64,000 bases of DNA from Candidatus Nanopelagicales bacterium (GCA_041393815.1 JAWKJK010000001.1:145058-209057), one strand, 5' to 3'; positions 8,180-26,837 are shown, counted from the stretch's first letter. A program made the numbers and translations. Notes: a model not told the origin generated them from the sequence alone.

Positions 8180-9815
8180 CGCCGCACAGGTGCAGACCGT
8201 TGGCCAGCGTCTGCCGGGCGGCGGCGCACAGCCACAGCCGGGCCACGTGGATCGGCTCGACCTGCTCGTCGCCGCGCGGCAGCACCCGGCAGGAGTCGTA
8301 GAACTTGTGGTAGGCCGTGGCCAGGTCCTCCAGGTAGCGGGCGACCCGGTGCGGCTCGCGCAGCTCGGCGGCGGACGCCACCACGCGGGTGAACTCGCCC
8401 AGCACGCCCAGCAGGTCGCTCTCCCGGTCGTGCGTGAGCAGCGCCGGGTCGAACGGCATGCTCCGCCAGTCGATCCCGAGGTCCGCGGCGTTGCGCAGGA
8501 CCGAGGAGATCCGCGCGTGGGCGTACTGCACGTAGAAGACCGGGTTGTCGTTGGTGCGCTGGGTGAGCAGGTCGATGTCCAGCGTCAGCGGGGAGTCCGC
8601 CGGGTAGCGGATCAGGGTGTAGCGGGCGGCGTCGACGCCGACCTCGTCGACCAGGTCCTCCAGGGTGATGATGTTCCCGGCCCGCTTGGACAGCCGGACC
8701 TCCTCGCCTGCCTTGTACATCTTCACGAGCTGGCCGATGAGGACCTCGATGTTGCGGTCCATGTCGTCGCCCGCGCAGGCGGCGACCGCCCGCAGCCTGT
8801 TGACATAGCCGTGGTGGTCAGCGCCGAGCAGGTAGATGTTGATGTCGAAGCCCCGCGCACGCTTGTCGACGTAGTACGCGGTGTCGGACGCGAAGTAGGT
8901 CAGCTCGCCGTCCGCCTTGACCAGCACCCGGTCCTTGTCGTCGCCGAAGTCGGTGGTGCGCAGCCAGACCGCGCCGTCCTGCTCGAAGACGTGCCCCTGC
9001 TCCCGCAGCTTGGCCAGGCCGCGGTCCACGGCCCCGGACGTGTGCAGCGACCGCTCGGAGTACCAGACGTCGAAGTGGGTGCGGAACAGCTCCAGGACGT
9101 CCTTCTGCTGCTGCAGCTGCAGCGCGTAGCCGGCCTCCCGGAAGGCCTCCATCTGCTCGTCGTCGGGCAGGTCCCGGATGCCCGGGTCCTCCGCCACGAT
9201 CCGGGCTGCCAGGTCCATGATGTAGGCGCCGTGGTAGCCGTCCTCGGGCACCGGCCGGCCGTGCGCGGCCGCCTTGATGGACTCGCCGAACCGGTCCATC
9301 TGCACGCCGCGGTCGTTGATGTAGAACTCCCGCGCCACCGACGCGCCCGCGGCCTCCAGCACCCGCGCGATGGCGTCGCCGACCGCGGCCCAGCGGGTGT
9401 GCCCCAGGTGCAGCGGCCCGGTCGGGTTGGCGGAGATGAACTCGACGTTGACGCTCTCCCCGTCGAGGGAGTCCCCGCGGCCGTAGGCGGGGCCCGCGTC
9501 CACGACCGTGCGGGCCAGCTCGCCCTGGGCCGCGGACTCCAGCACCACGTTGATGAAGCCCGGCCCCGCCACCTCCGTGGACGCGATCCCGTCCACCTCG
9601 GCCAGCGCGTCGGCGACCAGCTGGGCCACCTCGCGGGGCGGGCGGCCGGCGGGCTTGGCCAGCTGCATGGCCACGTTGGTCGCGTAGTCGCCGTGCTCCC
9701 GGTTGCGGGGGCGCTCGACCTTGACCTCGCCGGGGACCTCGACGGCGAGGGCACCCTCGTCGACGAGCCGCTGGAGCACCGCCGCGAGGGCCTCGGAGAG
9801 CTGGTCGGGCGTCAT
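8157..9815 (-). CDS. argS: Arginine--tRNA ligase
   Basis: Class I HIGH motif (SANPTGPLHLGHTR), an anticodon-binding DALR region and the typical C-terminal ...LCGVTAPERM. Confidence 0.97.
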   Translation of the reverse strand: MTPDQLSEALAAVLQRLVDEGALAVEVPGEVKVERPRNREHGDYATNVAMQLAKPAGRPPREVAQLVADALAEVDGIASTEVAGPGFINVVLESAAQGELARTVVDAGPAYGRGDSLDGESVNVEFISANPTGPLHLGHTRWAAVGDAIARVLEAAGASVAREFYINDRGVQMDRFGESIKAAAHGRPVPEDGYHGAYIMDLAARIVAEDPGIRDLPDDEQMEAFREAGYALQLQQQKDVLELFRTHFDVWYSERSLHTSGAVDRGLAKLREQGHVFEQDGAVWLRTTDFGDDKDRVLVKADGELTYFASDTAYYVDKRARGFDINIYLLGADHHGYVNRLRAVAACAGDDMDRNIEVLIGQLVKMYKAGEEVRLSKRAGNIITLEDLVDEVGVDAARYTLIRYPADSPLTLDIDLLTQRTNDNPVFYVQYAHARISSVLRNAADLGIDWRSMPFDPALLTHDRESDLLGVLGEFTRVVASAAELREPHRVARYLEDLATAYHKFYDSCRVLPRGDEQVEPIHVARLWLCAAARQTLANGLHLCGVTAPERM

Positions 9816-10104
9816 GGCGCCGGAGCCTACCCAGGCCGTCGCGGAGGTGCCCCGGGCCGCTCCCGGCGACGCGACCGTGCCGAGTGGTGCCCGGCACCCC
9901 CGCGGACCCGCTACACTCGTGACCGCTGAGCACCACCACCGTTCTACGGCGCCCGTGGACCACGTCTCCGGGCGCTTTGCTACATAGAGATGTCCGCTTC
10001 ACGGCTAGTCCACGAGCGATCTCCACGAGCAGGACGACGGCGAGGCACGGCACCAGGCGGGGAGCAACAAGGCGACTCGCAGTTTTTCGCTCAAGGAGAT
10101 TCGC

Positions 10105-10308
10105 ATGACTCAGGGCACCGTGAAGTGGTTCAACGCCGAGAAGGGCTTCGGGTTCATCGCCCAGGCCGATGGCGGCGCTGACGTCTTCGTCCACTTCTCG
10201 GCCATCCAGATGGACGGCTACCGCACGCTGGAGGAGAACCAGCGCGTCGAGTTCGAGATCGTCCAGGGCCCCAAGGGCCCCCAGGCGGAGAACGTCCGCC
10301 CGGCCTGA
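10105..10308 (+). CDS. cspA: Cold-shock protein (CspA family)
   Basis: 67 aa with RNP1 KGFGFI and RNP2 VFVHFS. AAGGAG RBS precedes the start, downstream of a long upstream untranslated region. Confidence 0.95.
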
Positions 10309-10385
10309 TCGCTGGCTTCACCGGTAGGGGTCCCGTCGCGACGGGGCCCCTTCCGGCGTTCCCGGGCCCGTGATGTGATGGCTGG

Positions 10386-10808
10386 GTGCGCACCCTGCTG
10401 AACCTGCTCTGGCTGGTGTTCGTAGGCATCGGCACGGCGCTGACCTACGTGCTGGCCGGGGTCATCTCCTTCATCCTCATCGTCACCATCCCCTTCGGCA
10501 TCGCCTGCTTCCGGCTGGCCGGCTACGCGCTGTGGCCGTACGGACGGACGGTGGTGCACGACCCGGAGGCGGGTGCGATGAGCACGATCGGCAACGTGCT
10601 GTGGTTCGTGTTCGCCGGCTGGTGGCTGGCGCTGTCCCAGTTCGTCGCCGGGATCGTCTACTGCGTGACGATCATCGGGATCCCATTCGGGATCGGGCTG
10701 TTCAAGCTGGCCCGGCTGTCGCTGAACCCGCTCGGCAAGCAGGTGGTGCCGGTGGAGTTCGCCGACGTGGCGCGCGGCGGGGTGTCCGCATACGTGCCCG
10801 TGCAGTAG
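10386..10808 (+). CDS. YccF domain-containing inner membrane protein
   Basis: Duplicated YccF-type hydrophobic repeat (NLLWLVFVGIGTALTYVLAGV...TIPFGIACFRLA and NVLWFVFAGWWLAL...IIGIPFGIGLFKLA). Confidence 0.85.
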   Translation: MRTLLNLLWLVFVGIGTALTYVLAGVISFILIVTIPFGIACFRLAGYALWPYGRTVVHDPEAGAMSTIGNVLWFVFAGWWLALSQFVAGIVYCVTIIGIPFGIGLFKLARLSLNPLGKQVVPVEFADVARGGVSAYVPVQ

Positions 10809-10811
10809 GGC

Positions 10812-11678
10812 CTAGGACGGCAGCTGCAGGATCTCCACGCTGACGCCCAGTTCCTCGCTGCGCTCGCCGTTGTAGATCCCCTTCAGCGGCGGCACGTCGC
10901 CGTAGTCCCGGCCGCGAGCGACCACCACGTGCCCGACGCCGACATAGCGGTCGTTGGTGGGGTCGTGCGCCTCCCACCCGCCGGTCCAGCACTCCACCCA
11001 GGCGTGGCTCTCCCCGTGGACGCTGCTGCCGACCGCCGGCTCCTCGGTGTGCAGGTAGCCGCTGACGTAGCGGGACGGGACCCCCACGGCGCGCAGCAGC
11101 GACAGGGTCGCGTGCGAGAAGTCCTGGCAGACGCCGTGCCCGGAGTTCCACGCCTCGTGCGCGGTGGTGGACACGGTCGTGACACCAGGGGTGTAGGTCA
11201 TCCGCTCGCGCACCACCGCGACGGCCGCGGCCACCGCGACGCGTGGGGTCGGCAGCGCCCGCAGCATCCGCACGGTCTCGACCCGGTCCGGGTCCGCGGC
11301 CGCGTCGTCGACGTAGCCGGTGGGGTCGAGGTACTCGCACCAGCGGTCCCGCACCGCCGGGTCCGCCAGGTCCTCCCAGGACGCCGACCCGGCGAGCACC
11401 GGTGCCCGGGTCACCTCCACCGTGCTCGTGGACACGACCTCGAGCACCCGGTGCTCCTCGTGCACGTCGAAGGCTTCGACGAAGGCCCCCCAGTAGTCCA
11501 CGTACGACGTCACCCCGGCGCTCGGGGTCACGTCCAGCCGGTGCGACAGCAGCACCTGGCCGTCCCCGTCGTTCGGGGTCATCCGGACCTCGTTGAACGA
11601 CGCGTGCACGGGGCCCGCGTAACGCAGCCCGGTGCGATGGGTGATGCGCAGCCGCCGGCCGTGCTCCTCGGCAGTCAT
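10812..11678 (-). CDS. Transglutaminase-like cysteine peptidase family protein
   Basis: N-terminal Bact_transglu_N-like region plus a core with catalytic-type GVCQDF, SHAWVE and DPTN. Confidence 0.9.
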   Translation of the reverse strand: MTAEEHGRRLRITHRTGLRYAGPVHASFNEVRMTPNDGDGQVLLSHRLDVTPSAGVTSYVDYWGAFVEAFDVHEEHRVLEVVSTSTVEVTRAPVLAGSASWEDLADPAVRDRWCEYLDPTGYVDDAAADPDRVETVRMLRALPTPRVAVAAAVAVVRERMTYTPGVTTVSTTAHEAWNSGHGVCQDFSHATLSLLRAVGVPSRYVSGYLHTEEPAVGSSVHGESHAWVECWTGGWEAHDPTNDRYVGVGHVVVARGRDYGDVPPLKGIYNGERSEELGVSVEILQLPS

Positions 11679-11679
11679 G

Positions 11680-12585
11680 TCAGTGGCTCCAGACGATCGT
11701 GCCGGCCTGCCGGAAGTACGCCTCGACCACCGCGTCGGACGCCCGGGTCGCCCCCGCCTGCGCGTCTCGGGCCAGCCGGTCCACCTCGGCCGGGGTCGGT
11801 GAGACGACGTACTCGACCCGGGATCGCAGCATGCCGACCTCGCGCAGCAGCATCCCGCCGTCGTCGACGCCCATCAGTTGCAGCGCCCGGACCGCGTCCT
11901 CGGCGTGCGCGGCGCAGCTGCGCACCGACCGGGGGTTCACCTCGTCGAGGAGCAGGAACGCGCGCACCTCGTCCCCGCTCATGGACAGCCCCGCGCGCAG
12001 GAACGCGTCGTGCATGCCCGCGGCCCGCAGGGTCGCCACCGGGCCGGTCTCGGGCCACAGCTGGTCGTGCCGGACGTTCATCAGCCGAACCGTCATGTCG
12101 ATGCGCTCCAGGGACCGGCCGAGGTCCATGAACAGGTAGCCCTCGTCGCGCGGCATGGTCCACTGCAGGACCCCGTTGACCACCAGCAGCCGTTCGATCA
12201 CCCGGTGCAGGGCGACCCCCGGGCTGGCCGCCAGCGCCAGTCCCCGCGACAGCGCCAGGTAGGCGCCGTTGAGGGCCTCGTAGACGTCGCTGGAGATGGT
12301 GTCCCGGATGGCCCGGGCGTTCTCCCGCGCGCCCGACACCGAACCGGAGATGGTCGCCGGCAGGTCCGGCGTGCCGACCAGCGCCCGCACCAGGCCGGCC
12401 GTCTCGACGGCATCGACCCGGGGCAGCGACAGCGCGTCCAGCAGGACGACGCAGGCGGTCTCCTCCGACTCCAGCCGCTCCTCGACCAGCAGTTGGTGGT
12501 GCTCGGACAGCATCCGGGCGGTGGCCTCGGCGCGCTCCAGGTAGCGCCCCATCCAGAAGTACGACTCGGCGATGCGGCTCAGCAC
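11680..12585 (-). CDS. Alpha-E domain-containing protein
   Basis: Typical start MLSRIAESYFWMGRYLERAE. 1-nt gap to the transglutaminase gene and 7-nt overlap with the upstream ATP-grasp gene. Confidence 0.85.
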   Translation of the reverse strand: MLSRIAESYFWMGRYLERAEATARMLSEHHQLLVEERLESEETACVVLLDALSLPRVDAVETAGLVRALVGTPDLPATISGSVSGARENARAIRDTISSDVYEALNGAYLALSRGLALAASPGVALHRVIERLLVVNGVLQWTMPRDEGYLFMDLGRSLERIDMTVRLMNVRHDQLWPETGPVATLRAAGMHDAFLRAGLSMSGDEVRAFLLLDEVNPRSVRSCAAHAEDAVRALQLMGVDDGGMLLREVGMLRSRVEYVVSPTPAEVDRLARDAQAGATRASDAVVEAYFRQAGTIVWSH

Positions 12586-14162
12586 GGCGACCCACCGGCC
12601 TGCTGCTGCTGGGCCTCCTGCTGGCGCAGCCGCTCGTCGTGCGTCTTCGGGGCGTCCGCGCGGCTCGGCAGCGGGGTGATCCGGCGGCGAGCGCGCGTGC
12701 GGCGCGGCTCAGGCCGCTGGGTCGGGCCGCTGCCGTCCTCCAGCACCCAGGTGTCCTTGGAGCCGCCGCCCTGGCTGGAGTTGACGACCATGCTGCCCTC
12801 GGGCAGGGCCACCCGGGTCAGGCCTCCGGGCAGCACGTAGACCTGACGGCCGTCGTTGACCGCGAAGGGACGCAGGTCGACGTGCCGCGGGGCCAGCGAA
12901 CCGTCCTCCACCACCGTCGGCGACGTGGACAGGGTCACGATCGGCTGGGCGATCCAGCCGCGCGGGTCGCGGCGGATCACCGACGCGACCTCCGCCAGCT
13001 GGCCGTCGCTGGCCCGGTCCCCCATCACCAGGCCGTAGCCGCCGGACCCGTCGACCGGCTTGATGACCATGCGGTCCAGCCGCTCCACGACCCACTCGAG
13101 CACGTCCGGCTGCTGAAGGTCGTACGTCTCGACGTTGGGCAGCAGCGGCTCCTCGCCGAGGTAGAACCGGATCAGCGCGGGGACGTACGGGTAGATGGCC
13201 TTGTCGTCCGCGACGCCGTTGCCCACGGCGTTGGCGATGGTCACGTTGCCCGCGCGCGCCGCGTTGACCAGGCCCGGCACGCCCAGCACCGAGTCGGGCC
13301 GGAACTGCACCGGGTCGAGGAAGTCGTCGTCGATGCGCCGGTAGAGCACGTGCACCGGTCGGGGACCCTGCGTGGTCCGCATCCAGACCAGGTTGTCCCG
13401 GCAGTACAGGTCGCGGCCCTCGACCAGCTCGATACCCATGCGGCGGGCCAGGAACGCGTGCTCGAAGTGCGCGCTGTTGTGCACGCCCGGGGTGAGGACC
13501 GCGACCACCGGGTCCATGACGTGGGCCGGGGCGGCCGCGCGCAGCGCGTCCAGCAGCCGCTCGGGGTACTCCGCCACCGGCCGGACCCGGTGCCCGGAGA
13601 ACACCTCCGGCAGCACGTGTGCGAGCGCCCGCCGGTTCTCCAGCACGTAGGACACGCCGGACGGGTTGCGCAGGTTGTCCTCCAGGACGCGGAACACCCC
13701 CTCCGCGTCGCGGACCAGGTCGACGCCGGCGACGTGGATCCGGACGCCGTTCGGCGGCTGGAGGCCCCACGCCTGCCGGTGGTAGTGCGTCGAGCTGACC
13801 ACCAGGTGCCGCGGGATGATCCCGTCGGCGAGCACGTCGCCGACGCCGTAGATGTCCTCCAGGAACATCTCCAGCGCCCGGATCCGCTGCGCGACGCCGG
13901 CCTCGAGGTGGCGCCAGTCCTCCGCCCCGATGACCCGGGGGACCAGGTCCATCGGCAGCGGCCGCTCCCGGCCGGACAGCGAGAAGGTGATGCCCTGGCG
14001 GTCCAGGTACGCATCGCGCAGCCGGGCCCGCTCCTCCAGACCCTCGGGTCCGAGCCGGGACAGCACCCGGTGCACCCGCCCGGGCGCCGACCGCGCGTCG
14101 GCTGCGGGCATCTCGTCGTACGGCTCCGCGCCGACCCGCCGCAGCCCGGGGGTCGCCGTCAT
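12579..14162 (-). CDS. Circularly permuted type-2 ATP-grasp protein
   Basis: Track ORF 12579..14990 trimmed to ATG at 14162 (MTATPGLRRVG...). The body matches the family found with alpha-E/transglutaminase partners (LVPRVI...WRHLEAGVAQRIRALEMFLEDIY...VHVLYRRIDDDFLDP...KPVDGSGGYG). Confidence 0.85.
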   Translation of the reverse strand: MTATPGLRRVGAEPYDEMPAADARSAPGRVHRVLSRLGPEGLEERARLRDAYLDRQGITFSLSGRERPLPMDLVPRVIGAEDWRHLEAGVAQRIRALEMFLEDIYGVGDVLADGIIPRHLVVSSTHYHRQAWGLQPPNGVRIHVAGVDLVRDAEGVFRVLEDNLRNPSGVSYVLENRRALAHVLPEVFSGHRVRPVAEYPERLLDALRAAAPAHVMDPVVAVLTPGVHNSAHFEHAFLARRMGIELVEGRDLYCRDNLVWMRTTQGPRPVHVLYRRIDDDFLDPVQFRPDSVLGVPGLVNAARAGNVTIANAVGNGVADDKAIYPYVPALIRFYLGEEPLLPNVETYDLQQPDVLEWVVERLDRMVIKPVDGSGGYGLVMGDRASDGQLAEVASVIRRDPRGWIAQPIVTLSTSPTVVEDGSLAPRHVDLRPFAVNDGRQVYVLPGGLTRVALPEGSMVVNSSQGGGSKDTWVLEDGSGPTQRPEPRRTRARRRITPLPSRADAPKTHDERLRQQEAQQQQAGGSPC

Positions 14163-14201
14163 GCGGACAGGATCTACCAGATCGGCGCGCCTCGGGTGAC
14201 G

Positions 14202-14567
14202 ATGGGGGGCATGAGCACAGGTGGAGACGACATCGAGCGCCTGCTGCGCGAGGTCGACGCGCTGAACGCGGGCGGGGCCCCTGCCGGGGGCTCCGCGGGC
14301 AAGGAGGTCGCGTCCCGCGGGTCGACGCCGCAGCCGAAGGGCCGCAAGGGCAAGGAGGTGGAGGAGTCCGGCGGGAGCGCGGGCGGCCGGGTCGCCTTCG
14401 CACTGCTGGCGGCGGTCGTCGTCGGAGTCATCGGCGCGTTCGTCGGCATGTTCCTCGGGCCGATCCCGCTGCTGGCCACCGGGTTCTGGGCGACCGGCCT
14501 CGGTGCCGCGTTCGGCGCGTTCCTGACGGCCCTGGTGGCGGGCCCGCCGCGCTGGTTCGACTCGTAG
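14202..14567 (+). CDS. Small hypothetical membrane protein
   Basis: This is the 3-prime end of an otherwise antisense 642-aa track ORF. From MGGMSTGGDDIERLLREVDAL it has a charged N-terminus and two hydrophobic helices (VAFALLAAVVVGVIGAFVGMFLGPIPLLATGFWATGLGAAFGAFL). Start could be 14202 or 14211. Confidence 0.5.
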   Translation: MGGMSTGGDDIERLLREVDALNAGGAPAGGSAGKEVASRGSTPQPKGRKGKEVEESGGSAGGRVAFALLAAVVVGVIGAFVGMFLGPIPLLATGFWATGLGAAFGAFLTALVAGPPRWFDS

Positions 14568-14571
14568 CAGT

Positions 14572-14592
14572 TCCCGCCGCCGCGGGGCGGGA
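14572..14592 (+). terminator. Short GC hairpin 4 nt after the stop of the small membrane protein
   Basis: tcccgcc-gccgcgg-ggcggga (7-bp stem, 7-nt loop). No U-tract. Confidence 0.3.
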
Positions 14593-14834
14593 GCGGACGG
14601 GCGGCAGGGGGCGGGCCCGCAGCCGACCAGGGGAGGGAGGTCGGCCGGCCGCGGGCCCGATGGCCGGTCCCCACCCCCGTGGGAGACCGGCACCGTCGAT
14701 GTGCCCGGGTGCTCGACGGCCAAACCGGGACCTGTGGTCCGGGCCATGTCGGTTCCGTCACAGACGCCCGGTCGTCCGCCACCCCGGGATTCGGAGCGCG
14801 ACCGCGCCGGCTGATAACCTCCCGCTCGTCCCTG

Positions 14835-14909
14835 GCCCCCGTAGCTCAGGGGATAGAGCAGTGGCCTCCGGAGCCATGCGCGCAGGTTCGAATCCTGCCG
14901 GGGGCACCA
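14835..14909 (+). tRNA. tRNA-Arg (anticodon CCG), CCA encoded
   Basis: Hand-folded cloverleaf:
- Acceptor: GCCCCCG/CGGGGGC.
- D arm: GCTC-AGGGGATA-GAGC.
- Anticodon arm: GTGGC-CTCCGGA-GCCAT (anticodon CCG).
- T arm: GCAGG-TTCGAAT-CCTGC.
- Discriminator A followed by CCA.
The antisense translation QDSNLRAWLRRPLLYPLSYGG in track ORF 12579..14990 is the usual tRNA artefact. Confidence 0.9.
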
Positions 14910-14925
14910 GATCCGGGAGGGTGCC

Positions 14926-15396
14926 GTGCTCCGCGCGGACATGGTGCAGGCGTATGTCATCGACCTGCTCAAACGGCTCACCGGGAGCACCGTCAGTCCG
15001 GACGCGGACGGCGACCTGCCGGTGCACTACCAGGGCGGCGCGTTCTTCGTCCGCGTCGTCGGCAACGACGGCAACCCGCTGGTCCAGGTCTTCGCCGTCG
15101 CCGTCGCCGGGCTCGCTCCCAGCCCGGGGCTGTATGAGGCGCTCAACGGCATCAACACCCAGCTGCAGTTCGCCCGGGCGTTCCACGTCCAGGAGCAGGT
15201 GCTCATCGAGTCGGAGATGTTCGGTGCGGACGTGAACCCGGCCAACTTCGAGCACGCCTGCCGCTACGTCGCCGGGGCCACCGACGCCTTCGGCAAGCGG
15301 CTGGTCGAGTCGTTCGGCGGGCGGCCGTTCTTCGAGGAGCGCAAGACCGAGGCGTACGACGAGCACTACCCGCGGGGCCTCGGCGGCTACCTCTGA
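14926..15396 (+). CDS. YbjN-domain (T3SS-chaperone-like) protein
   Basis: 156 aa with GGGAGG 5 nt upstream of the GTG. The pattern LLKRL...PDADGDLPV...GGAFFVRVV...PLVQVFAV...LYEALNGINTQLQFARAF is typical of the YbjN / putative sensory transduction regulator family. Confidence 0.7.
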   Translation: MLRADMVQAYVIDLLKRLTGSTVSPDADGDLPVHYQGGAFFVRVVGNDGNPLVQVFAVAVAGLAPSPGLYEALNGINTQLQFARAFHVQEQVLIESEMFGADVNPANFEHACRYVAGATDAFGKRLVESFGGRPFFEERKTEAYDEHYPRGLGGYL

Positions 15397-15399
15397 CAC

Positions 15400-16182
15400 T
15401 CAGCCGGTCGACTCGGCGTCGCCGCCGGCCCCCTCGTGGCCGTCCACGGTGTCGGTCGTGGGCCGGCGCAGCCGGCGCGACGGGTCCGCGGCCAGCTCCT
15501 CGACCTTGGCCCAGACGCGGGAGCGGACCTCGCCCATGTTCATCTCGCCCAGGTGGGTGACCCGGCCGATGATGAGATCGTCGATGGGCAGGTCCGGGTA
15601 GGCGAGCAGGTGCTGGCGGTACTCCTGCTCGTTCGCGATCAGCACGTTGGAGACCCCGGGCACGTCGATGTGCGCCTCGACGTACGGGCTGATGACGATC
15701 TCGTGCGTGGAGTAGATGTTCGTGACGCGGTCGGCGACCGGCGGCAGCTCGTCGTGCAGGCGAGTGAGGAACTCCGACCCGGCCGCCATGTCGGTGAGGG
15801 CCGGAGTGAGGTCGCGCCCGGTCCAGCGCAGCAGCCGGGTCACGCGAGACGCGCTGCGCGAGCCGTGCCAGGGCGCGCCGACCGAGAAGACGTACAGCAC
15901 CTGGTCGGGGTGGTCGATCAGGTAGCGCAGGCAGGCCAGCGCGCCCTGCGAGTGGCCGACCAGCACCAGCGGCGCGTCCGGCCTGCGCCCCTGCGCGAGC
16001 AGGCCCTTGCGGATGTCGCGGGCGAGGTGCTCCTGGGACGAGTGCAGCGGGAGCGTGACGCCGAAGCTGGCCAGGGTCACCAGGAAGGCATTGGGGTGCC
16101 GCTCGAGGACGCCCCGCATCATCGCGTTCGCGGCGACGCCCTTGATGGCGGTGCCCGCGACGATGGGGACGGCGATCGGCAT
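15400..16182 (-). CDS. Esterase/lipase family alpha/beta hydrolase
   Basis: Nucleophile elbow GHSQGAL in a lipase class 2 / PGAP1-like context. Confidence 0.8.
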   Translation of the reverse strand: MPIAVPIVAGTAIKGVAANAMMRGVLERHPNAFLVTLASFGVTLPLHSSQEHLARDIRKGLLAQGRRPDAPLVLVGHSQGALACLRYLIDHPDQVLYVFSVGAPWHGSRSASRVTRLLRWTGRDLTPALTDMAAGSEFLTRLHDELPPVADRVTNIYSTHEIVISPYVEAHIDVPGVSNVLIANEQEYRQHLLAYPDLPIDDLIIGRVTHLGEMNMGEVRSRVWAKVEELAADPSRRLRRPTTDTVDGHEGAGGDAESTG

Positions 16183-16184
16183 GC

Positions 16185-17246
16185 TCAGTCCCGCCCTTCC
16201 GGCCCTGCGGAGCCTCGCTCCACGGCACCGTACGAAGGGCCCGAGCCGTAGAGGCCAACGTCATGGCCCCCGTCAGGCCCCGGCGCGTCCAGCGTGAGGT
16301 GCACCACGCCGCGCCACGACTCCCCCGGCGCGAGCGTCCGCCAGCCCAGGTCCCGTCCCGGCCGCTGCAGGTGCACCGCGTCGGTGGGGCAGGTGTAGGG
16401 CTCCACCGCGACCGACTCCCGGTTCGGTGGCGTGAACACGACGATCTCGCGGAAGGAGGCATCGCCGCGCAGCGCCAGCCGCAGTCCGTCACCGAGCACG
16501 GCGGCGCGCTCCATCAGGCCGTCCGGGCCGGGCGCGAACGCGGGCAGCCCGGTGAGCACCTCGTCGAGGGACCGGTCCCCCAGCGCGGGGGCGGATCTCA
16601 GGTCGGTCCGGTCGTCCACCGGGGCGAGCTCGCCGGTCGGGATGCCGTCCGCGAGCAGCCAGCGCTCGTCGGCACCGCACCAGACCCGGGTCCGCTCCAC
16701 CGCCCCGGCAAGCGGGCGCAGGTACGCGTGGAGGCCGAGGCCGAAGGGCGCCGGCTCGTCCCCTCGGTTGGCCACCTCGGCGACGATCGCCAGCGCCCGG
16801 TCCGAGAGCGCGTACGTCAGCGTGAGCTCCAGGGCACCCGGCCAGACCTGGGCGGGGTCGGCGGTGTCCCGGTCGAGCGCGAACCGGCCGGTGACCGAGC
16901 CCGGGCCGGTGCGCTCGTACCGGCTCCAGGCGGCGCGGCAGGCGTAGCCGTGGATCGCGTTCGGGTCGCCCGGGTGCGTGCGCGGCAGGTCCCATCGGCG
17001 GCCGCCCGCGTCGAAGGACGCTCCGGCGATCCGGTTCGGGAACGGGAACAGCACGGGGATCCCGCTGCGCGTCGGGCTCCCGCCGCGCAGCGCGTCCGGC
17101 TCCGCGTGCACGACGTCCACCGGATCCCTGCCGTCCACCGGCACCAGCGCCAGCCGGACGCAGTTGAACCCGAGGGCCGGGCTGACGTCGGCGAGCGCGC
17201 CGCCGGGGCTGACGAGCCGGACCGGCTCGCCGAGTCCGGCGCTCAC
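16185..17246 (-). CDS. Aldose 1-epimerase family protein
   Basis: Track ORF trimmed to the GTG at 17246, which overlaps the upstream stop as GTGA. Motifs GIPVLFPFPNRI, NAIHGY and FGLGLHAYL. Confidence 0.8.
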   Translation of the reverse strand: MSAGLGEPVRLVSPGGALADVSPALGFNCVRLALVPVDGRDPVDVVHAEPDALRGGSPTRSGIPVLFPFPNRIAGASFDAGGRRWDLPRTHPGDPNAIHGYACRAAWSRYERTGPGSVTGRFALDRDTADPAQVWPGALELTLTYALSDRALAIVAEVANRGDEPAPFGLGLHAYLRPLAGAVERTRVWCGADERWLLADGIPTGELAPVDDRTDLRSAPALGDRSLDEVLTGLPAFAPGPDGLMERAAVLGDGLRLALRGDASFREIVVFTPPNRESVAVEPYTCPTDAVHLQRPGRDLGWRTLAPGESWRGVVHLTLDAPGPDGGHDVGLYGSGPSYGAVERGSAGPEGRD

Positions 17247-17605
17247 CCCTCCCGCAGCCAGTCGGCCGCGGACACCCGCCGGACGCGGTAGCCGTACTGC
17301 TTCAGGCCGGTGACCAGGGTGGCCGCCGCGGACGGGTCGGTGGTGTGCACGACGACGACGCCGATCGGGTACGGGGCGCCCGTGGCGGCGCACTGGGACA
17401 GGTAGTCCAGCACCGGGATGGTCGAGTCGGGGGCCCCGTCGACCCCGGCGCCCAGGTCGTCGTCGAGCCACAGCTCGTCGAGGAACAGGTCCTCGGTGTG
17501 CAGCTCGGCGAGCACGTCCAGCGCCTCCTGGGAGGTGTGGGCGCGACGGTGCGCGTAGCCGTCGTCGGTGAACGTGCGGGTGTCGTCGACCAGCAGCCGC
17601 TGCAT
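17243..17605 (-). CDS. Stand-alone receiver-fold protein resembling the cyclic-phosphate-processing receiver (cREC) family
   Basis: 120 aa. LLVDDTRTF ... EALDVL ... LWLDDDLG ... IPVLDYL ... VVVVHTTDPSAA matches my memory of the cREC pattern (LDD.R ... SLDHDLG ... VHS.NP). There is no output domain. Confidence 0.6.
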   Translation of the reverse strand: MQRLLVDDTRTFTDDGYAHRRAHTSQEALDVLAELHTEDLFLDELWLDDDLGAGVDGAPDSTIPVLDYLSQCAATGAPYPIGVVVVHTTDPSAAATLVTGLKQYGYRVRRVSAADWLREG

Positions 17606-17609
17606 GGGG

Positions 17610-18140
17610 TCAGCCTGCCATCGCTGCCAGGGCCGCCGCGGCGAGTTCGCCGGGGTCGCGGCCCTCGACGTCGAGGACGACGTCGGCGGCCGCGGCCAGG
17701 ACGTCCGCCCGGGCCCGCACCTGCGCCGCGAGGAGCTCCGCCCGGGCCCCCGGATCCAAGGGCAGCAGCGGTCTCCGCGGGCCGGTGGTGGTCCTGCGGG
17801 CCAGGGTCGACGGCGTCGCGCGCAGCCAGACGACCACGCCGGCCCGCCTCAGCCGCTCGGGCAGGTCGCGGTCGTCCGCGGCGCTGGCGGGCAGCGTCGC
17901 CACGCAGGGCTCGGGCGCCGACAGGATCAGGTCGACGACCCGCGCCTCGGCGCGGTGCAGGGCCTCCACGCCCTGCTCGCGCTCCAGTTCCGCCGCGTCG
18001 CCGCCGGCCTCGGCCCGCAGCAGGACGTCGTTGTCGAGCAGCGACCATCCGGTCCGTTCCGCGACCGCGACCCCCACCGACGACTTGCCCGACCCCATCA
18101 GGCCCACGAGGAGCAGCCGGCGGGGGCGGGCGGGCGTCAT
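17610..18140 (-). CDS. Shikimate-kinase-like P-loop kinase (divergent)
   Basis: Trimmed to the ATG at 18140, which overlaps the SulP stop as ATGA. Walker A LLLVGLMGSGKSSVG, DND and a lid RRPLL are present. The GGG shikimate-binding motif position reads LPASA. Confidence 0.7.
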   Translation of the reverse strand: MTPARPRRLLLVGLMGSGKSSVGVAVAERTGWSLLDNDVLLRAEAGGDAAELEREQGVEALHRAEARVVDLILSAPEPCVATLPASAADDRDLPERLRRAGVVVWLRATPSTLARRTTTGPRRPLLPLDPGARAELLAAQVRARADVLAAAADVVLDVEGRDPGELAAAALAAMAG

Positions 18141-19867
18141 GAGGGGACGTCCTCCGCGTCCTCGTCCGGCACGCCAGTCAGGCGGCAGGCCGCGGCCACC
18201 GCCTGGCTGATGCTGTGCCAGATCCGGTCCGGACCGAGCAGCCCCACGAACCCGGCCTTCTCCATCACCAGCTCGGCCCGGCTGAGGACACGGGCGAGCA
18301 CGAGTTCGACCTCCATCCCGCGCAGCTCGACCAGGAGCGTGTGCAGGACGTCCACCGCGGTGGTGTCGAGCTGCCCCGTGGCTTCGAGGTCGAGCACGAC
18401 CGCGCGGGTGCCCGGCGCCCCGTCCAGCTCGGCCAGGATCAGCCCGTGGGCGTCCTCGCAGTTCACCCAGAACAGCGGGGCATCCAGCCGCAGCACCAGG
18501 ATGCCCGGGACCGGACGTCGCTCCGGGTGCCCCCGCAGCGACCCCCACCCGGCCCGCTCGTGCGGGATCCGGCCCAGCGGGTCGACGCGCACCTTGCTGG
18601 ACCGGTACACCAGGCCCAGCAACGAGATCCCGACCGCGGCGAGCAGGCCGTACAGCGGGCCGAGCAGGACCACGCCCAGCAGCCCCGTCCACGCCCCGAC
18701 GTAGTCGTTACGCCGCACCTTCCGATAGCGGGTCATCGTCCGCGGCGCGATCAGGAACCACACGCTCATCACGACCACGGCGGACAGCACGACCCGGGGT
18801 AGGTCGGCGAGCAGGTCGGTGAAGGCGACCAGGACCACCAGCACCGCGACCATGGCCGCGAGGGCCGAGATCTGGCTGCGGGCGCCCGCCGACACGGCGG
18901 ATGCCGTCCTGCTGAGGCTGCCGCACACGGACAGTCCGCCCGAGAAGCCGGCGGCGACGTTGGCCGCGCCCACCCCGACGAACTCCTGGTCGGCGCTGAT
19001 CCGGTATCCGCCGCGCGCCGCGAACAGCCGGGCAGCCGACAGGCCCTCCCCCACGGCGACGAGGGCCAGGGCCACCCCGCCGAGCGCGATCGTCGGCAGG
19101 TCGGAGGGGTCGACCTGGGGCACGCCCAGCGGCGGGAGTCCCTGCGGCACCGGCCCGATGACCTCGACGTCGTGCGACTGCAGGTCGAGCACCGGCGCCA
19201 GCGCGATGCCCGCCACCATCAGCGTGAGCGCCCACGGCCAGCGCGGCGCCAGCCGGTGGCCGGCGATGAGGACGGCCAGACAGAACAGCCCGATCCCGAG
19301 CGTTACCGGGTTCGTCTCGCCGAGCTGCTGCACCGTGGCCCACAGGCGCGGCACGAACTGGTTCGGCTCCTTGGGCAGGCCCAGGATGTGCGGCAGCTCG
19401 CCCACGATCACGGTGAGCGCGAGGCCGAAGGTGAAGCCGGTGATGACCGGCTTGGACATGAAGTCGGTGATCCACCCCAGGCGGACCGTGCCCGCCAGCA
19501 TCAGGATCAGCCCGCACGCCAGCGCCAGCGCCGCGGACAACGCCGCCGCCTCGGCGGGGCTGCCGGACCCGACCAGGCCGAACACCACCGATCCGGACAT
19601 CAGCGCGACGGTCGAGGACGGGCCCACCGACAGCTGCCGGGAGGAGCCGAAGATGGCGTACGCCAGCAGCGCACCGGGCAGGGCATAGAGGCCGACCTGC
19701 ACCGGGGCGTCCGCCACCCCCGCATAGCCCAACGCGATCGGGATGGCCACCGAGGCCACCACGAGGCCGGCCAGCAGGTCCTTGGGAAGCCACGACCACT
19801 GGTAGCGGGGCAGCCAGCGCACGATCGGCACGTAGCGGCCGAGCCCGACCCCCGACAGCACGGTCAT
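18137..19867 (-). CDS. SulP family inorganic anion transporter with C-terminal STAS domain
   Basis: 576 aa. Start of the SulP core WLPKDLLAGLVVASVAIPIALGYA, with a STAS region ILVLRLDAPLFWVN...VVLDLEATGQLDTTAV. Confidence 0.9.
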   Translation of the reverse strand: MTVLSGVGLGRYVPIVRWLPRYQWSWLPKDLLAGLVVASVAIPIALGYAGVADAPVQVGLYALPGALLAYAIFGSSRQLSVGPSSTVALMSGSVVFGLVGSGSPAEAAALSAALALACGLILMLAGTVRLGWITDFMSKPVITGFTFGLALTVIVGELPHILGLPKEPNQFVPRLWATVQQLGETNPVTLGIGLFCLAVLIAGHRLAPRWPWALTLMVAGIALAPVLDLQSHDVEVIGPVPQGLPPLGVPQVDPSDLPTIALGGVALALVAVGEGLSAARLFAARGGYRISADQEFVGVGAANVAAGFSGGLSVCGSLSRTASAVSAGARSQISALAAMVAVLVVLVAFTDLLADLPRVVLSAVVVMSVWFLIAPRTMTRYRKVRRNDYVGAWTGLLGVVLLGPLYGLLAAVGISLLGLVYRSSKVRVDPLGRIPHERAGWGSLRGHPERRPVPGILVLRLDAPLFWVNCEDAHGLILAELDGAPGTRAVVLDLEATGQLDTTAVDVLHTLLVELRGMEVELVLARVLSRAELVMEKAGFVGLLGPDRIWHSISQAVAAACRLTGVPDEDAEDVPS

Positions 19868-19886
19868 CGAGCGTCCCGACCGGCGT

Positions 19887-23255
<3,369 letters not shown>

Positions 23256-23404
23256 GGGCGCTGCTCCCTCTCGTCCCTCGGCGGCATGGTCGTCCCTGGG
23301 CGCGGCGGGCGCCCCGAGGACCGAGGCTATTGCCGTCGGCGGCCGCACGCGGCCGGATCGGCGCAGCGGCCGCGGCGTCCGGCCGGGCACGGTAGGAAGG
23401 GCCC

Positions 23405-24367
23405 ATGCGCCTGGGCCTGACGATCCCGCTCGAGGGAATGCCGCCGGACGAGCTGCGGCGACTGGTGGAGTCCCTGCCCGACCTCGGCTACACCGACGCG
23501 TGGTCGATGGAGGTCGCCGGCACCGACGCGTTCACCCCGCTGGTGCTGGCCAGCCAGTGGGCACCGTCGCTGCGGCTCGGGACCGCGATCGTGCCCGTCC
23601 ACACCCGCGGGCCGGCCCTGATCGCACAGAGCTTCGCGGCGCTCGCGCAGGCCGCGCCGGGACGGGTCGCCGCCGGGATCGGGGCGTCCAGCCCGACGAT
23701 CGTCGAGGCCTGGAACGGGATCGCGTACGAGGAGCCCTACGCGCGGGTGCGCGACACGCTGCGGTTCCTGCGGCTGGCCTTCGCCGGCGGCAAGGTGGAC
23801 CTGGAGTCGCCGACGGTGCACGTGCGCGGGTTCCGTCCCGGGCTGGTGCCCGACCCGGCTCCCCCGATCCTGCTCGCCGCGCTGCGCAGCGGGATGCTCG
23901 CGCTGGCCGGCCGCGAGGCCGACGGCGCGATCCTCAACTGGCTGGCAGCCGACGACGTGCCGAAGGTGGCGGGGATCGTGCACGACGCCGCCGCCGGTGC
24001 CCCTCGCGAGATCGCGGCCCGCATCTTCGTGATCCCGACGGCGGACGCCGAGGTGGCCCGCGGGGTCGCCCGGTTCGCGATCGCCGCGTACCTCACGGTC
24101 GGGGCGTACGCGGCCTTCCACGAGTGGCTGGGCCGGGGCGACCGACTCGGTGAGACCTGGCGGCTGTGGGCCGCCGGCGAGCGTCGCGCCGCGGCCGCCG
24201 CCGTACCCGACTCCGTCGTGGACGAGCTGGTCGTGCACGGACCGCCCGAGGCCTGCCGCGAGCACGTGGCGGCGTACGTCGAGAACGGGGTGACGACCCC
24301 GGTCCTGGCCCTGCTGCCGGGCGGCTACGACGTCGCCGCGGCGGTCCGGGCGCTCGGGGCGCGCTGA
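23405..24367 (+). CDS. LLM-class F420-dependent oxidoreductase
   Basis: Luciferase-like monooxygenase pattern MRLGLTIPLEG...LGYTDAWSMEVAGTDAFTPL. AGGAAGG RBS. Confidence 0.8.
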   Translation: MRLGLTIPLEGMPPDELRRLVESLPDLGYTDAWSMEVAGTDAFTPLVLASQWAPSLRLGTAIVPVHTRGPALIAQSFAALAQAAPGRVAAGIGASSPTIVEAWNGIAYEEPYARVRDTLRFLRLAFAGGKVDLESPTVHVRGFRPGLVPDPAPPILLAALRSGMLALAGREADGAILNWLAADDVPKVAGIVHDAAAGAPREIAARIFVIPTADAEVARGVARFAIAAYLTVGAYAAFHEWLGRGDRLGETWRLWAAGERRAAAAAVPDSVVDELVVHGPPEACREHVAAYVENGVTTPVLALLPGGYDVAAAVRALGAR

Positions 24368-24393
24368 CCGGCGGGGAGCGGCAGGATCGGGGC

Positions 24394-24816
24394 ATGGATC
24401 TCACGACCGCGCTCGACTTCGTCCGCCCCCGGCACCGCGGCGTGCTGGTCACCCTCAAGGCCGACGGCCGCCCGCAGCTGTCCAACGTGATGTACGCCCT
24501 GGCCGACGACGGCGTGGTCCGCGTCTCCGTCACCGAGACCCGGGCGAAGACCGCCAACGCCCGTCGCGACCCGCGCGTCAGCCTGTACGTGACCGCCGAC
24601 GACTTCTGGTCCTACGCGGTGGTCGAGGGGGAGGCGGAGCTGACGCCGGCCGCGCGCGACCCGCAGGACCCGACCGTGCAGGAGCTGGTCTCGCTGTACC
24701 GGGAGATCAGCGGCGAGCATCCCAGCTGGGACCAGTACCGGTCGGCGATGGTGGCCGACCGTCGGCTCGTGCTGCGACTGCGCCCGACCTACGCCTACGG
24801 GATGCTCCAGGGCTGA
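24394..24816 (+). CDS. PPOX-class (pyridoxamine 5'-phosphate oxidase family) probable F420-dependent enzyme
   Basis: Trimmed to the ATG at 24394 (MDLTTALDFVRPRHRGVLVTLKADGRPQLSNVMY...RDPRVSLYV), about 140 aa, typical of this family. Confidence 0.8.
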   Translation: MDLTTALDFVRPRHRGVLVTLKADGRPQLSNVMYALADDGVVRVSVTETRAKTANARRDPRVSLYVTADDFWSYAVVEGEAELTPAARDPQDPTVQELVSLYREISGEHPSWDQYRSAMVADRRLVLRLRPTYAYGMLQG

Positions 24817-25125
24817 CCGCGGGCGCGACACGCGCTACTCCAAGATCGCCGAAAAGTCACGTCCCGCAAGGCCTTGTGGTCGTGTCCGCCCCCCTGTTAG
24901 AACTCGTACACCTCGCCGGAGACGGCGAGGGTCGGGACGGTGACAGAGGTCCTGTCCGCGGGCCGGACCCGCGGGGCTGCGGTGCCACGCAGCCGGACCC
25001 CGATCCGGTCCGAGGTCCGAGAACGGCCTGCGCCTGCGCCGCGGCGACGCGGCGTCGGGGCCCGTCCGGGAGGCACCCCGGCCGGTCCCGCCCGACCCGT
25101 CGGGCGGGCGTGCCGGACGGACCGG

Positions 25126-25162
25126 GTGGGACCCCTCGACCTCATACGTCGAGGGGTCCCAC
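25126..25162 (+). promoter_or_regulatory. Perfect 15-bp stem-loop enclosing the putative Shine-Dalgarno of the downstream ORF
   Basis: gtgggacccctcgac-ctcatac-gtcgaggggtcccac. GAGGGG (25151-25156) lies in the 3-prime arm and the ATG at 25165 follows 2 nt after the stem. Confidence 0.4.
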
Positions 25163-25164
25163 GC

Positions 25165-25629
25165 ATGTCCGGGCAGGATGGTGACGTGACCGCCCCCTCC
25201 GCCCCGAGCCGGCTGTCGACCGAGCTGGCCGCCGCGCTGAAGGCGGCCGGGCTGCGCTGGGTGCCGGCCAGCGGCGACCAGTTCGTGCTCCCGGACCGCG
25301 ACCTCGACCACCTGGTGTTCGTGCTCAGCGACATGACCGTGGACGTGCAGGACGTGCCCAGTGGCCGCGTCATCGGCTTCAACGGCACCGTGGAGTGGGC
25401 GCTGGACAGCGTCGAGATCGACGAGGCGCTGTGGCTGCCCCGCGAGGACGCGCTGCGCGAACTGCTCGGGGAGGCGTTCCGGTCGCTGCGCCGGACGTCC
25501 GACGGGTATGCGGTCACCGCGGAGACCTCGGACGGAGTGGCCCGCGTCGGGGTCGCCGCGTCGGCGGTCGACGCGTACGCCCGGGCCCTGCTCGCGGTGG
25601 GGGTGCCGCCCGCGCGACCGGGGGGCTAG
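25165..25629 (+). CDS. Hypothetical protein
   Basis: Coding-like composition from MSGQDGDVTAPS onward. The upstream part of track ORF 24940..25629 is Arg/Pro junk. An alternative GTG start lies at 25186. No family recognised. Confidence 0.5.
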   Translation: MSGQDGDVTAPSAPSRLSTELAAALKAAGLRWVPASGDQFVLPDRDLDHLVFVLSDMTVDVQDVPSGRVIGFNGTVEWALDSVEIDEALWLPREDALRELLGEAFRSLRRTSDGYAVTAETSDGVARVGVAASAVDAYARALLAVGVPPARPGG

Positions 25630-26837
25630 CGCTGGGGTCGGCCGTCGCCCGGCTGGGCCACGTCCGGGTCCGGCGGCGCGTCCCCGATCCCCGGCGGGAT
25701 GACCGCGCCGTCCTCGATCTGCTTCGACAGGTGCAGCCGGGCCAGGAACGCCTGCTCGCTGAGCACCCCGGAGCCCGCCGCCCTGGCAATGGCGTCCCCA
25801 CCGCGGCCGCGCAGGAGGTAGGCGAAGCCCACCGCGATCAGCGCGCCGGTCAGCGGCCCGACGACGTACACCCAGAAGGCGGTCCAGTTGCCGCTCACCA
25901 GGGCCGGCCCGAACGAGCGGGCGGTGTTCATCGAGGTGCCGCTCACCGGCGCGGACCACAGACCGGCCAGGGCGATGTAGCCACCGACCCCGACCGCGGC
26001 GATCGCGCCCACGTTCTGCGCGGCCGAGGCGGTCCCGAGGATGACGCTCAGCAGCCCCACCGTCGTGACGATCTCCATGAGCAGCGCCTGGCCGGCGTCG
26101 TACCCGGGGCCGGGGACCGTCCCGCCGAGGCCCTCGACGTTGCCGAAGACCGCCAGCAGGAACAGGCACGCCAGCGTGGCCCCGAGCAGCTGGGTCGCGA
26201 TGTAGCCGGGCACCCGTCGCCAGGGGAAGTCGCCGCGCAGTGCGAACGCCAGCGAGACGCCGGGGTTGAGGTGGGCGCCGGAGACCGCACCCATGAACAG
26301 GATGATGGACATCACCATGAGCCCGGGGGCGACCACGGCGGCGGCCAGGCTGATCTGGCCCAGTGCGTGCAGCAGCCCGCCACCGGCGGCCGCCAGCACC
26401 AGCAGGAAGGTGCCGAACAGCTCCGAGAACAGTCGCCGCCACTCCTGCCGCGGGTCGTCGAAGTCGCGCGGGTCGCCGAACTCGAGCATGAGCAGGTGGT
26501 GGGTGCGGGCCAGCCCCGGCAGCACCGGCGTCGCCGGGGCCGTGGGGTCCGGGGCCGTGGGGTCCGGGGCCGTGGGGTCCGGGGCCGTGGGGTCCGGGGC
26601 CGTGGGGTCCGGGGCCGTGGGGTCCGGGGCCGCCGGCCCGTTCGCGGCGGGCCCGCTGCCGGCCGGCCCGGTTGCGCCGAGCCGGCTCGCCGTCGACGCG
26701 GGTGCGCCGGGGATGGTCGCCGCCGGACCGCCATGCAGGATCTGCGCCTCGGTCGGACCGGGCTGTCCCACCGCCGGGTCCTGACCCGGGTCCCGCGGGT
26801 GGGACGAGGCCCGCTCGCCCTGTTGTTCGTCCGCCAT
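25626..26837 (-). CDS. MIP/aquaporin family channel with long disordered N- and C-terminal extensions
   Basis: Trimmed to the ATG at 26837 (MADEQQGER...). Six-TM MIP core with half-helix boxes HLNPGVS and SMNTARS in place of the NPA motifs. Confidence 0.85.
   Translation of the reverse strand: MADEQQGERASSHPRDPGQDPAVGQPGPTEAQILHGGPAATIPGAPASTASRLGATGPAGSGPAANGPAAPDPTAPDPTAPDPTAPDPTAPDPTAPDPTAPATPVLPGLARTHHLLMLEFGDPRDFDDPRQEWRRLFSELFGTFLLVLAAAGGGLLHALGQISLAAAVVAPGLMVMSIILFMGAVSGAHLNPGVSLAFALRGDFPWRRVPGYIATQLLGATLACLFLLAVFGNVEGLGGTVPGPGYDAGQALLMEIVTTVGLLSVILGTASAAQNVGAIAAVGVGGYIALAGLWSAPVSGTSMNTARSFGPALVSGNWTAFWVYVVGPLTGALIAVGFAYLLRGRGGDAIARAAGSGVLSEQAFLARLHLSKQIEDGAVIPPGIGDAPPDPDVAQPGDGRPQR
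26536..26625 (-). repeat. Six perfect 15-bp tandem units encoding (PDPTA)6 in the aquaporin N-terminal tail
   Basis: ggggccgtggggtcc x6 read directly, followed by one degenerate unit. Confidence 0.95.

Follow-up and report, generated by a model that had tools for sequence, protein, structure and literature searches.

Are two genes that adjoin each other on an actinobacterial chromosome, one coding for a small kinase and the other for a receiver-fold protein, partners in a common function? The question is raised by a stretch of 64,000 nucleotides from a Candidatus Nanopelagicales bacterium (GCA_041393815.1, JAWKJK010000001.1:145058-209057), referred to here as the window, which is a fragment of an actinobacterial chromosome with a GC content of 72-77%. 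On its minus strand, a P-loop kinase of 176 amino acids with the fold of shikimate kinases (MEZ5114768.1, 17610..18140) is followed by a stand-alone protein of 120 amino acids (MEZ5114767.1, 17243..17605) belonging to the cyclic-phosphate-processing receiver (cREC) family. A preliminary description of this locus, made from the sequence alone, had presented the two genes as a pair in which a 5'-OH kinase and a 2',3'-cyclic-phosphate-processing enzyme would form a module for the healing of RNA ends. Our results argue for another explanation, which we hold with moderate confidence: kinase and cREC are probably two unrelated genes standing side by side in a compact, lineage-specific run of genes, rather than a dedicated pair.

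Distribution of the kinase-cREC adjacency

Loci carrying relatives of either gene were compared with the window. The cREC side was represented by the loci of four close homologues, 80 metagenome loci, 12 viral loci and one genome locus, a sample picked with the peptide pattern W[LF]DHDLG and for its similarity to the query protein, and the kinase side by 10 loci holding six distinct homologues. Contigs 99.6-100% identical to the window were the only ones to show the adjacency. An open reading frame (ORF) of the shikimate-kinase family was present in none of the 95 other cREC loci (709 kb in total, 76 of them with at least 600 bp upstream), and a cREC gene in none of the 10 loci of kinase homologues. 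A Walker-A scan of the 449 genes located within four positions of a cREC gene likewise detected no small kinase with an N-terminal P-loop. Moreover, cREC genes had no recurrent neighbour of any kind, no Pfam family being found more than 4 times among 141 immediate neighbours or more than twice among 115 second neighbours. Since the adjacency is conserved in no relative beyond a single population, the proposal that the two genes form a pair fails by a refuting result which the preliminary description had itself named.

The four closest homologues of the cREC protein, at 69-74% identity, all have other genes upstream than those of the window: a Sacchrp_dh-like gene in locus L001, a DUF805 gene in L003, a gene for a 409-amino acid protein on the contig of P0003, and, in L002, small hypothetical genes within an integrase/resolvase/PemK region. 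The cREC gene of this last locus (P0005, L002:2558-8366, metagenome-assembled genome (MAG) GCA_038208295.1; 69% identity) is preceded by genes for an integrase, a resolvase and a PemK-type toxin, a mobile-looking context unlike that of the window copy.

Locus L001 is the most instructive for the history of the arrangement. Its cREC protein, 72% identical to that of the window, is encoded directly before a 73%-identical orthologue of the alpha/beta-hydrolase which closes the run of genes in the window, and this hydrolase is the only neighbour from the window that also adjoins a close cREC homologue. L001 lacks the kinase and the epimerase gene of the window and has, as in the window, an arginyl-tRNA synthetase (ArgRS) gene downstream. 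The presence of the cREC-hydrolase couple and of ArgRS, without kinase and epimerase, suggests that cREC and hydrolase represent an inherited arrangement and that the junction with the kinase arose by a later rearrangement. ArgRS itself is called in L001 as two overlapping genes (271 and 286 amino acids, L001:14332-16004) versus a single gene for 552 amino acids in the window (8157-9815); the split suggests a frameshift or an assembly error.

The kinase homologues have neighbourhoods of their own, which include an SDR gene with PhoD, a sugar ABC transporter with two dehydrogenases, a Na/H exchanger, oxidoreductases with a HAD sugar phosphatase, and TerC with a nucleoside hydrolase.

According to the explanation that we favour, a local rearrangement would have brought an independently evolving kinase and an independently evolving cREC gene together in one lineage of high-GC actinobacterial MAGs, giving rise to the minus-strand run treS-mak, sulP, kinase, cREC, epimerase and hydrolase. 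The cREC protein would be a stand-alone, presumed cyclic-phosphate phosphoesterase, and the kinase would phosphorylate a small molecule different from shikimate.

The cREC protein

The 120-amino acid protein carries the motifs LLVDDTR (residues 4-10), LWLDDDLG (residues 45-52) and VVVHTTDPSA (residues 84-93), from which it had been likened to the cREC family, a family distinct from phospho-accepting receivers. Profile searches and structure prediction both show a cREC-family member and not an ordinary CheY-like receiver. The protein matches cREC_REC (PF20274) with E = 9.5e-9 and 36.3 bits, above the gathering cut-off of 27, over profile positions 2-87 of 88; it scores 140 bits on a hidden Markov model of the family built in this analysis and matches the phage family phrog_1479 at 7e-9. 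Against the classical Response_reg profile (PF00072) there is no match at E <= 1, and the matches to NCBIfam receiver models are fragments only, with E >= 0.013. The conserved lysine after strand 5 (residues 108-110) is absent from the cREC family alignment. When 1.84 billion cluster representatives were searched exhaustively with a profile, 401 relatives were retrieved at E <= 1e-3, among which the window protein stands apart, since its own cluster was found at 1.2e-66 and the next-best at 1.2e-25.

A model built by AlphaFold2 with a 105-sequence alignment reached a predicted local distance difference test (pLDDT) score of 96 and a predicted TM-score (pTM) of 0.89. The solved structures closest to it are receiver domains, with a weak resemblance (TM 0.50-0.55), and the closest predicted viral structures are annotated cREC proteins (TM 0.6-0.76, E down to 1e-6); no solved structure of any member of the cREC family was found by sequence or fold search. 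In the same alignment D7, D48, L51, H87 and Y106 are invariant, and all of them are kept in the window protein together with D8 and R10. The acidic residues occupy the active-site positions of receivers, D7 and D8 following strand 1 and D48 following strand 3, while the invariant H87 follows strand 4. The protein is thus a member of the cREC family with a trimmed, receiver-like alpha/beta fold, a name which it already bears in GenBank ('cyclic-phosphate processing receiver domain-containing protein').

The definition of the family goes back to genome comparisons covering jumbo phages and systems related to nicotinamide adenine dinucleotide (NAD) and adenosine diphosphate (ADP)-ribose, and its members are predicted to process cyclic phosphates (PMC7824862, PMC9503650); its authors call it experimentally uncharacterised (PMC9503650). 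The window protein shares with it the profile, the fold, the two Asp residues that follow strand 1, a further Asp following strand 3 and the His following strand 4 (Iyer et al. 2021, PMC7824862; 2022, PMC9503650). Most members of the family are also stand-alone proteins of about 120 amino acids without a histidine-kinase partner. This is equally true here, as had been suggested: no output domain was found in the protein, and no HisKA or HATPase_c domain among the genes from 8157 to 26837, that is, within about 8 kb. By analogy with the family, the window protein is predicted to be a small phosphoesterase opening a cyclic phosphate, for which 2',3'-cyclic nucleotides or RNA ends and ADP-ribose 1'',2''-cyclic phosphate are candidate substrates.

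The window protein departs from the family at three near-invariant columns, conserved to at least 89%, where it shows R23H, H49D and N90D; this near-invariance is taken from our own alignment and is not a published criterion. The changes mark a divergent subgroup and do not exclude membership in the family. In the clade of five members to which the protein belongs, position 23 varies, positions 49 and 50 of the LDHDL motif read DD, SD, HH, DH or HD, and D90 is fixed. Three substitutions in highly conserved columns, the free variation at positions 49 and 50 and a fairly high ratio of nonsynonymous to synonymous substitutions between orthologues (dN/dS 0.32-0.44) are what could be expected if the cREC protein of this small clade were altered or inactive, a pseudo-enzyme with a binding or regulatory role, or the product of a gene in decay, rather than an end-processing enzyme. 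We regard such a loss as unlikely: none of the invariant residues named above has been lost, nor have D8 and R10; the fixation of N90D in five of five clade members points to a newly acquired constraint and not to decay; every copy has an intact ORF, and the GC content at third codon positions (GC3) is 0.99; and the structural model is a very confident one.

The kinase

The protein encoded upstream of cREC matches GenBank MEZ5114768.1 with 100% identity; its annotation there is 'shikimate kinase'. It carries the motifs GLMGSGKSS, DND and RRPLL, and LPASA in place of the LGGGA of shikimate kinases. The profile search recognized the SKI family (PF01202) with E = 1e-19 and 71.6 bits for a cut-off of 22.1, a stronger match than that to AAA_33 (33 bits), in agreement with the scaffold given in the preliminary description. 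No similarity to polynucleotide kinases was detected. The protein remains below every NCBIfam shikimate-kinase cut-off, scoring 40-69 bits for cut-offs of 142-217 bits (at best 69 versus 186, NF010552).

Alignment with the shikimate kinase (SK) of Mycobacterium tuberculosis (1L4U) and with Escherichia coli AroK (1KAG), proteins of the same fold which align over the full length, shows which parts of the active site are common to these enzymes and the window kinase. Walker A (GxxGxGKS), the DxD motif (D32/D34 of M. tuberculosis SK, D36-N-D38 in the window), the lid arginine of the RP motif (R117, here R123-P124) and the distal arginine (R136, here R144) are kept. The loss on the other side of the site goes further than the GGG loop noticed at first: in addition to G79-81, which becomes P84-A85-S86, R58 is replaced by H62, I45 by A49 and F49 by E53. 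Arg58, Gly79-81, Ile45 and Phe49 are all listed shikimate contacts (PMC2593004), and none of them is intact in the window protein. Shikimate-kinase activity is absent from the plant protein SKL1, in which the proximal Arg is missing (PMC2593004).

Twelve homologues with 33-45% identity (P0010, P0011, P0014, P0017, P0019, P0023, P0031, P0045, P0077, P0084, P0085 and P0114) share the invariant His62 and Ala85 with the window kinase and make up with it a subclade of 13 members, in which the GGG site reads (P/A)-A-(S/A). As the altered contacts are common to these twelve homologues, and are not a private decay of one gene, the kinase is probably not a shikimate kinase. Public sources give the name 'shikimate kinase' to these homologues too; none of those examined (loci L011-L016 and L110-L113) lies in an aro operon, and neither aroB nor aroC was found beside the kinase or beside any examined member of the subclade. 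A second group of kinase homologues has PGG, AAG or AGG at the GGG site and keeps Arg58.

That the kinase could nevertheless be the AroK of this genome, as its annotation states, finds some basis in the fact that shikimate kinases are its best matches in Pfam and among solved structures, in its GenBank name, and in the lack of any other gene of the SKI family in the 64-kb window. However, the loss of the listed contacts with the SKL1 precedent, the scores far below the NCBIfam cut-offs and a position outside any aro operon, with no aroB or aroC gene in the region of the window examined, make this identification highly improbable.

Within the shikimate-kinase fold, the kinase is thus part of a distinct subclade in which the ATP/Mg site and both arginines are kept and four shikimate contacts have been lost. 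It resembles in this respect the plant proteins SKL1 and SKL2, homoserine kinase (NF040667) and GntK, which combine a conserved ATP site with diverged shikimate-binding residues; neither SKL1 nor SKL2 has shikimate-kinase activity (PMC2593004). The window kinase weakly matches NF040667 (Desulfovibrio-type homoserine kinase, 58 bits) and gluconokinases, but meets no cut-off and falls into a separate, actinobacterial subclade marked by invariant His62 and A85. We infer that it may phosphorylate a hydroxylated small molecule other than shikimate, and not the 5'-OH ends of RNA.

Comparison with RNA end-healing systems

The possibility that the kinase acts on RNA 5'-OH ends and the cREC protein on 2',3'-cyclic phosphates, as the two halves of a nucleic-acid end-healing module, can be judged from these results. 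The confirmed membership in a family predicted to process cyclic phosphates (PMC7824862, PMC9503650), the combination of cREC with a nucleotide kinase and a tRNA ligase in some phage neighbourhoods (PMC9503650), the clear absence of the canonical shikimate contacts from the kinase and the tight junction between the two genes all speak for it. There is also a formal likeness to T4 Pnkp with Rnl, to Pnkp-Hen1, to RtcA/RtcB and to the phage sirtuin-ligase-cREC-nucleotide-kinase systems (PMC9503650), in that a kinase gene adjoins the gene of a predicted phosphoesterase.

Unlike these systems, the window pair comes without a ligase, a 3'-phosphatase or a HAD module, and its kinase has no detectable relation to polynucleotide kinases (T4 Pnk, Pnkp, Clp1/Grc3). 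Searched against all PDB sequences, the profile of the subclade matched only small-molecule kinases, namely shikimate kinases (E = 1e-36 to 1e-20) and gluconokinases (7e-11); its best 60 hits, down to E = 0.05, include no polynucleotide kinase. In its DxD motif and its lid and distal arginines the kinase has kept features typical of small-molecule binding, and its homologues stand in contexts of small-molecule metabolism. Within about 8 kb of the pair there is no ligase, RtcA/RtcB, Hen1, KptA, Nudix, Macro, sirtuin or WYL gene; compared with the cREC family at large, the window copy is found in a housekeeping chromosomal region without any such neighbour. PADLOC models of anti-phage defence matched neither the kinase nor the cREC protein. 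With an adjacency that no relative outside the same population shares, the end-healing module put forward in the preliminary description appears very unlikely. A pair that did heal RNA ends would represent a new repair module of minimal size; the evidence assembled here argues against it.

Organization of the gene run

The kinase and cREC genes stand in the middle of a packed run of six genes on the minus strand. The first codes for a fusion of 1167 amino acids (19887..23390), with an N-terminal trehalose synthase (TreS) domain and a C-terminal putative maltokinase domain, an enzyme of the alpha-glucan (GlgE) pathway; TIGR02456 (926 bits) and TIGR02457 (463 bits) both match above their NCBIfam cut-offs, and Pfam families match as well. 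After a gap of 19 nt comes a SulP-family anion transporter with a STAS domain (18137..19867; Sulfate_transp 5e-90, STAS 2.3e-10), whose stop overlaps the start of the kinase gene in ATGA, as read directly in the sequence. Four nucleotides (CCCC) separate the TGA stop of the kinase from the ATG of cREC, and the stop of cREC overlaps in GTGA the GTG start of a gene for an aldose-1-epimerase-family protein of 353 amino acids (16185..17246; Aldose_epim 4e-29), which is called in the same way on L006, a contig of the same population. The alpha/beta-hydrolase (15400..16182; 260 amino acids, GHSQG motif; Abhydrolase_1 and Hydrolase_4 at or near their cut-offs) follows after 2 nt and closes the run. 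On the opposite strand, a gene of the YbjN/TY-Chap1 family (14926..15396; TY-Chap1 8.9e-26) and tRNA-Arg(CCG) (14835..14909; called by ARAGORN, Rfam 65.8 bits) border its end. The positions of the two ORFs, their motifs, the 4-nt gap and the ATGA/GTGA overlaps are all as first described.

GC3 is 0.94-0.99 in all frames of the run, whereas the GC content at second codon positions is 0.41-0.58, a difference expected at the base composition of the window, and the genes are therefore real. An origin of the cluster from foreign DNA was considered on the basis of composition and rejected, GC and GC3 being the same as in neighbouring genes.

Riboswitch, leader and terminator signals were looked for in and around the run and none was found. 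Together with the tight junctions, the absence of terminators makes co-transcription of the run likely. Co-transcription says little on shared function in this genome, and tight junctions are uninformative here since gaps of 4 nt or less also occur in 9 of the 28 same-strand gene pairs of the window outside the cluster.

These features could alternatively reflect a lineage-specific small-molecule pathway, in which SulP would import an anion and the kinase, cREC, epimerase and hydrolase would act in turn on a cyclic-phosphate metabolite derived from a sugar or a nucleotide, such as ribose 1,2-cyclic phosphate, ADP-ribose 1'',2''-cyclic phosphate or a 2',3'-cyclic nucleotide. Five genes are indeed joined by overlaps or by gaps of 4 nt or less without any terminator, the kinase is of a small-molecule type, and an aldose-1-epimerase acts at the anomeric carbon, which would adjoin the site of a 1,2-cyclic phosphate. 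The gene of one kinase homologue directly precedes that of a nucleoside hydrolase, another has a HAD sugar phosphatase gene as its neighbour, and cREC is linked to the hydrolase in two genomes. That last link is, however, the only one to recur in the other loci examined, and it may be no more than inherited synteny because ArgRS is also shared downstream; tight spacing, moreover, is common in this genome. A pathway of this kind is in our opinion unlikely. A related idea, that cREC was recruited from orphan or conflict-type contexts into a metabolic operon salvaging a small cyclic-phosphate compound, seems quite unlikely; it would represent the first non-RNA metabolic role for cREC and would imply a sugar or nucleoside substrate for the shikimate-kinase-like subclade with His62 and Pro-Ala-Ser.

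The explanation by two unrelated neighbours remains the one that we prefer, and several points weigh against it. In this population the coupling of the genes could hardly be closer, with a 4-nt gap, 4-nt overlaps and no terminator found, and shared function is common among operon partners. The cREC loci, selected by pattern and similarity, cover only part of a family with roughly 1,650 homologues, and the substrates of kinase and cREC proposed above from their sequences are candidates only. Finally, phage neighbourhoods link cREC, a 'nucleotide kinase' and a tRNA ligase (PMC9503650), which gives a kinase-cREC partnership a precedent in principle.

Neighbourhoods of cREC genes and implications for annotation

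Both families were already known, and the cREC assignment of the window protein was already present in GenBank. The label 'shikimate kinase' is probably wrong for the His62 subclade, and such mislabelling affects pathway reconstruction in actinobacterial MAGs.

For cREC, the function prediction was based on RNA-repair and NAD/ADP-ribose gene neighbourhoods (PMC7824862, PMC9503650), and the family has been stated to occur only in RNA-repair or cyclic-ADP-ribose contexts (PMC9503650). In the approximately 80 cellular metagenome loci closest to the window protein, cREC genes are orphans and genes of RNA repair or NAD processing are almost absent: RtcB, ADP-ribosylglycohydrolase and the Ro60 vWA protein were each found once among the 141 immediate neighbours. 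The published statement of exclusive contexts (PMC9503650) does not fit these loci, and the predicted function of the family therefore rests on a subset of its members.

Examination of the individual metagenome loci (L018-L097) showed cREC genes that are mostly orphans without a recurrent neighbour, several of them in mobile-looking contexts with integrases, DDE transposases, pSAM2-type RepSA, PemK toxin or SUKH immunity proteins. In three other independent loci, as in the window, genes of the YbjN/TY-Chap1 family stand one to three genes from cREC, namely at L066:3-446, at L076:4909-5400 and 6352-6909, on both sides of cREC, and at L077:3597-4085; the copy of L077 is 53% identical to that of the window (14926-15396). 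The recurrence of YbjN with cREC is weak, at about 4 of 81 loci.

Other features of the window

Contig L006 is 99.9% identical to the window over positions 22044-14880 and breaks inside tRNA-Arg at 14880. Beyond the break (L006:7165-10038) it carries a phage-type integrase and a gene for a 410-amino acid protein, so that a strain-variable integrated element is indicated at this tRNA gene, 2.3 kb from the cREC gene.

A tRNA-Ala(AGC) called by ARAGORN at 55304-55376 is probably a false positive, since it is below the Rfam tRNA gathering score and lies inside a high-GC3 ORF on the plus strand (54471-56405). Directly beyond tRNA-Arg, a conserved set of three genes occupies positions 10812-14162 and consists of a circularly permuted ATP-grasp gene (12579-14162), an Alpha-E domain gene (11680-12585) and a transglutaminase-like gene (10812-11678).

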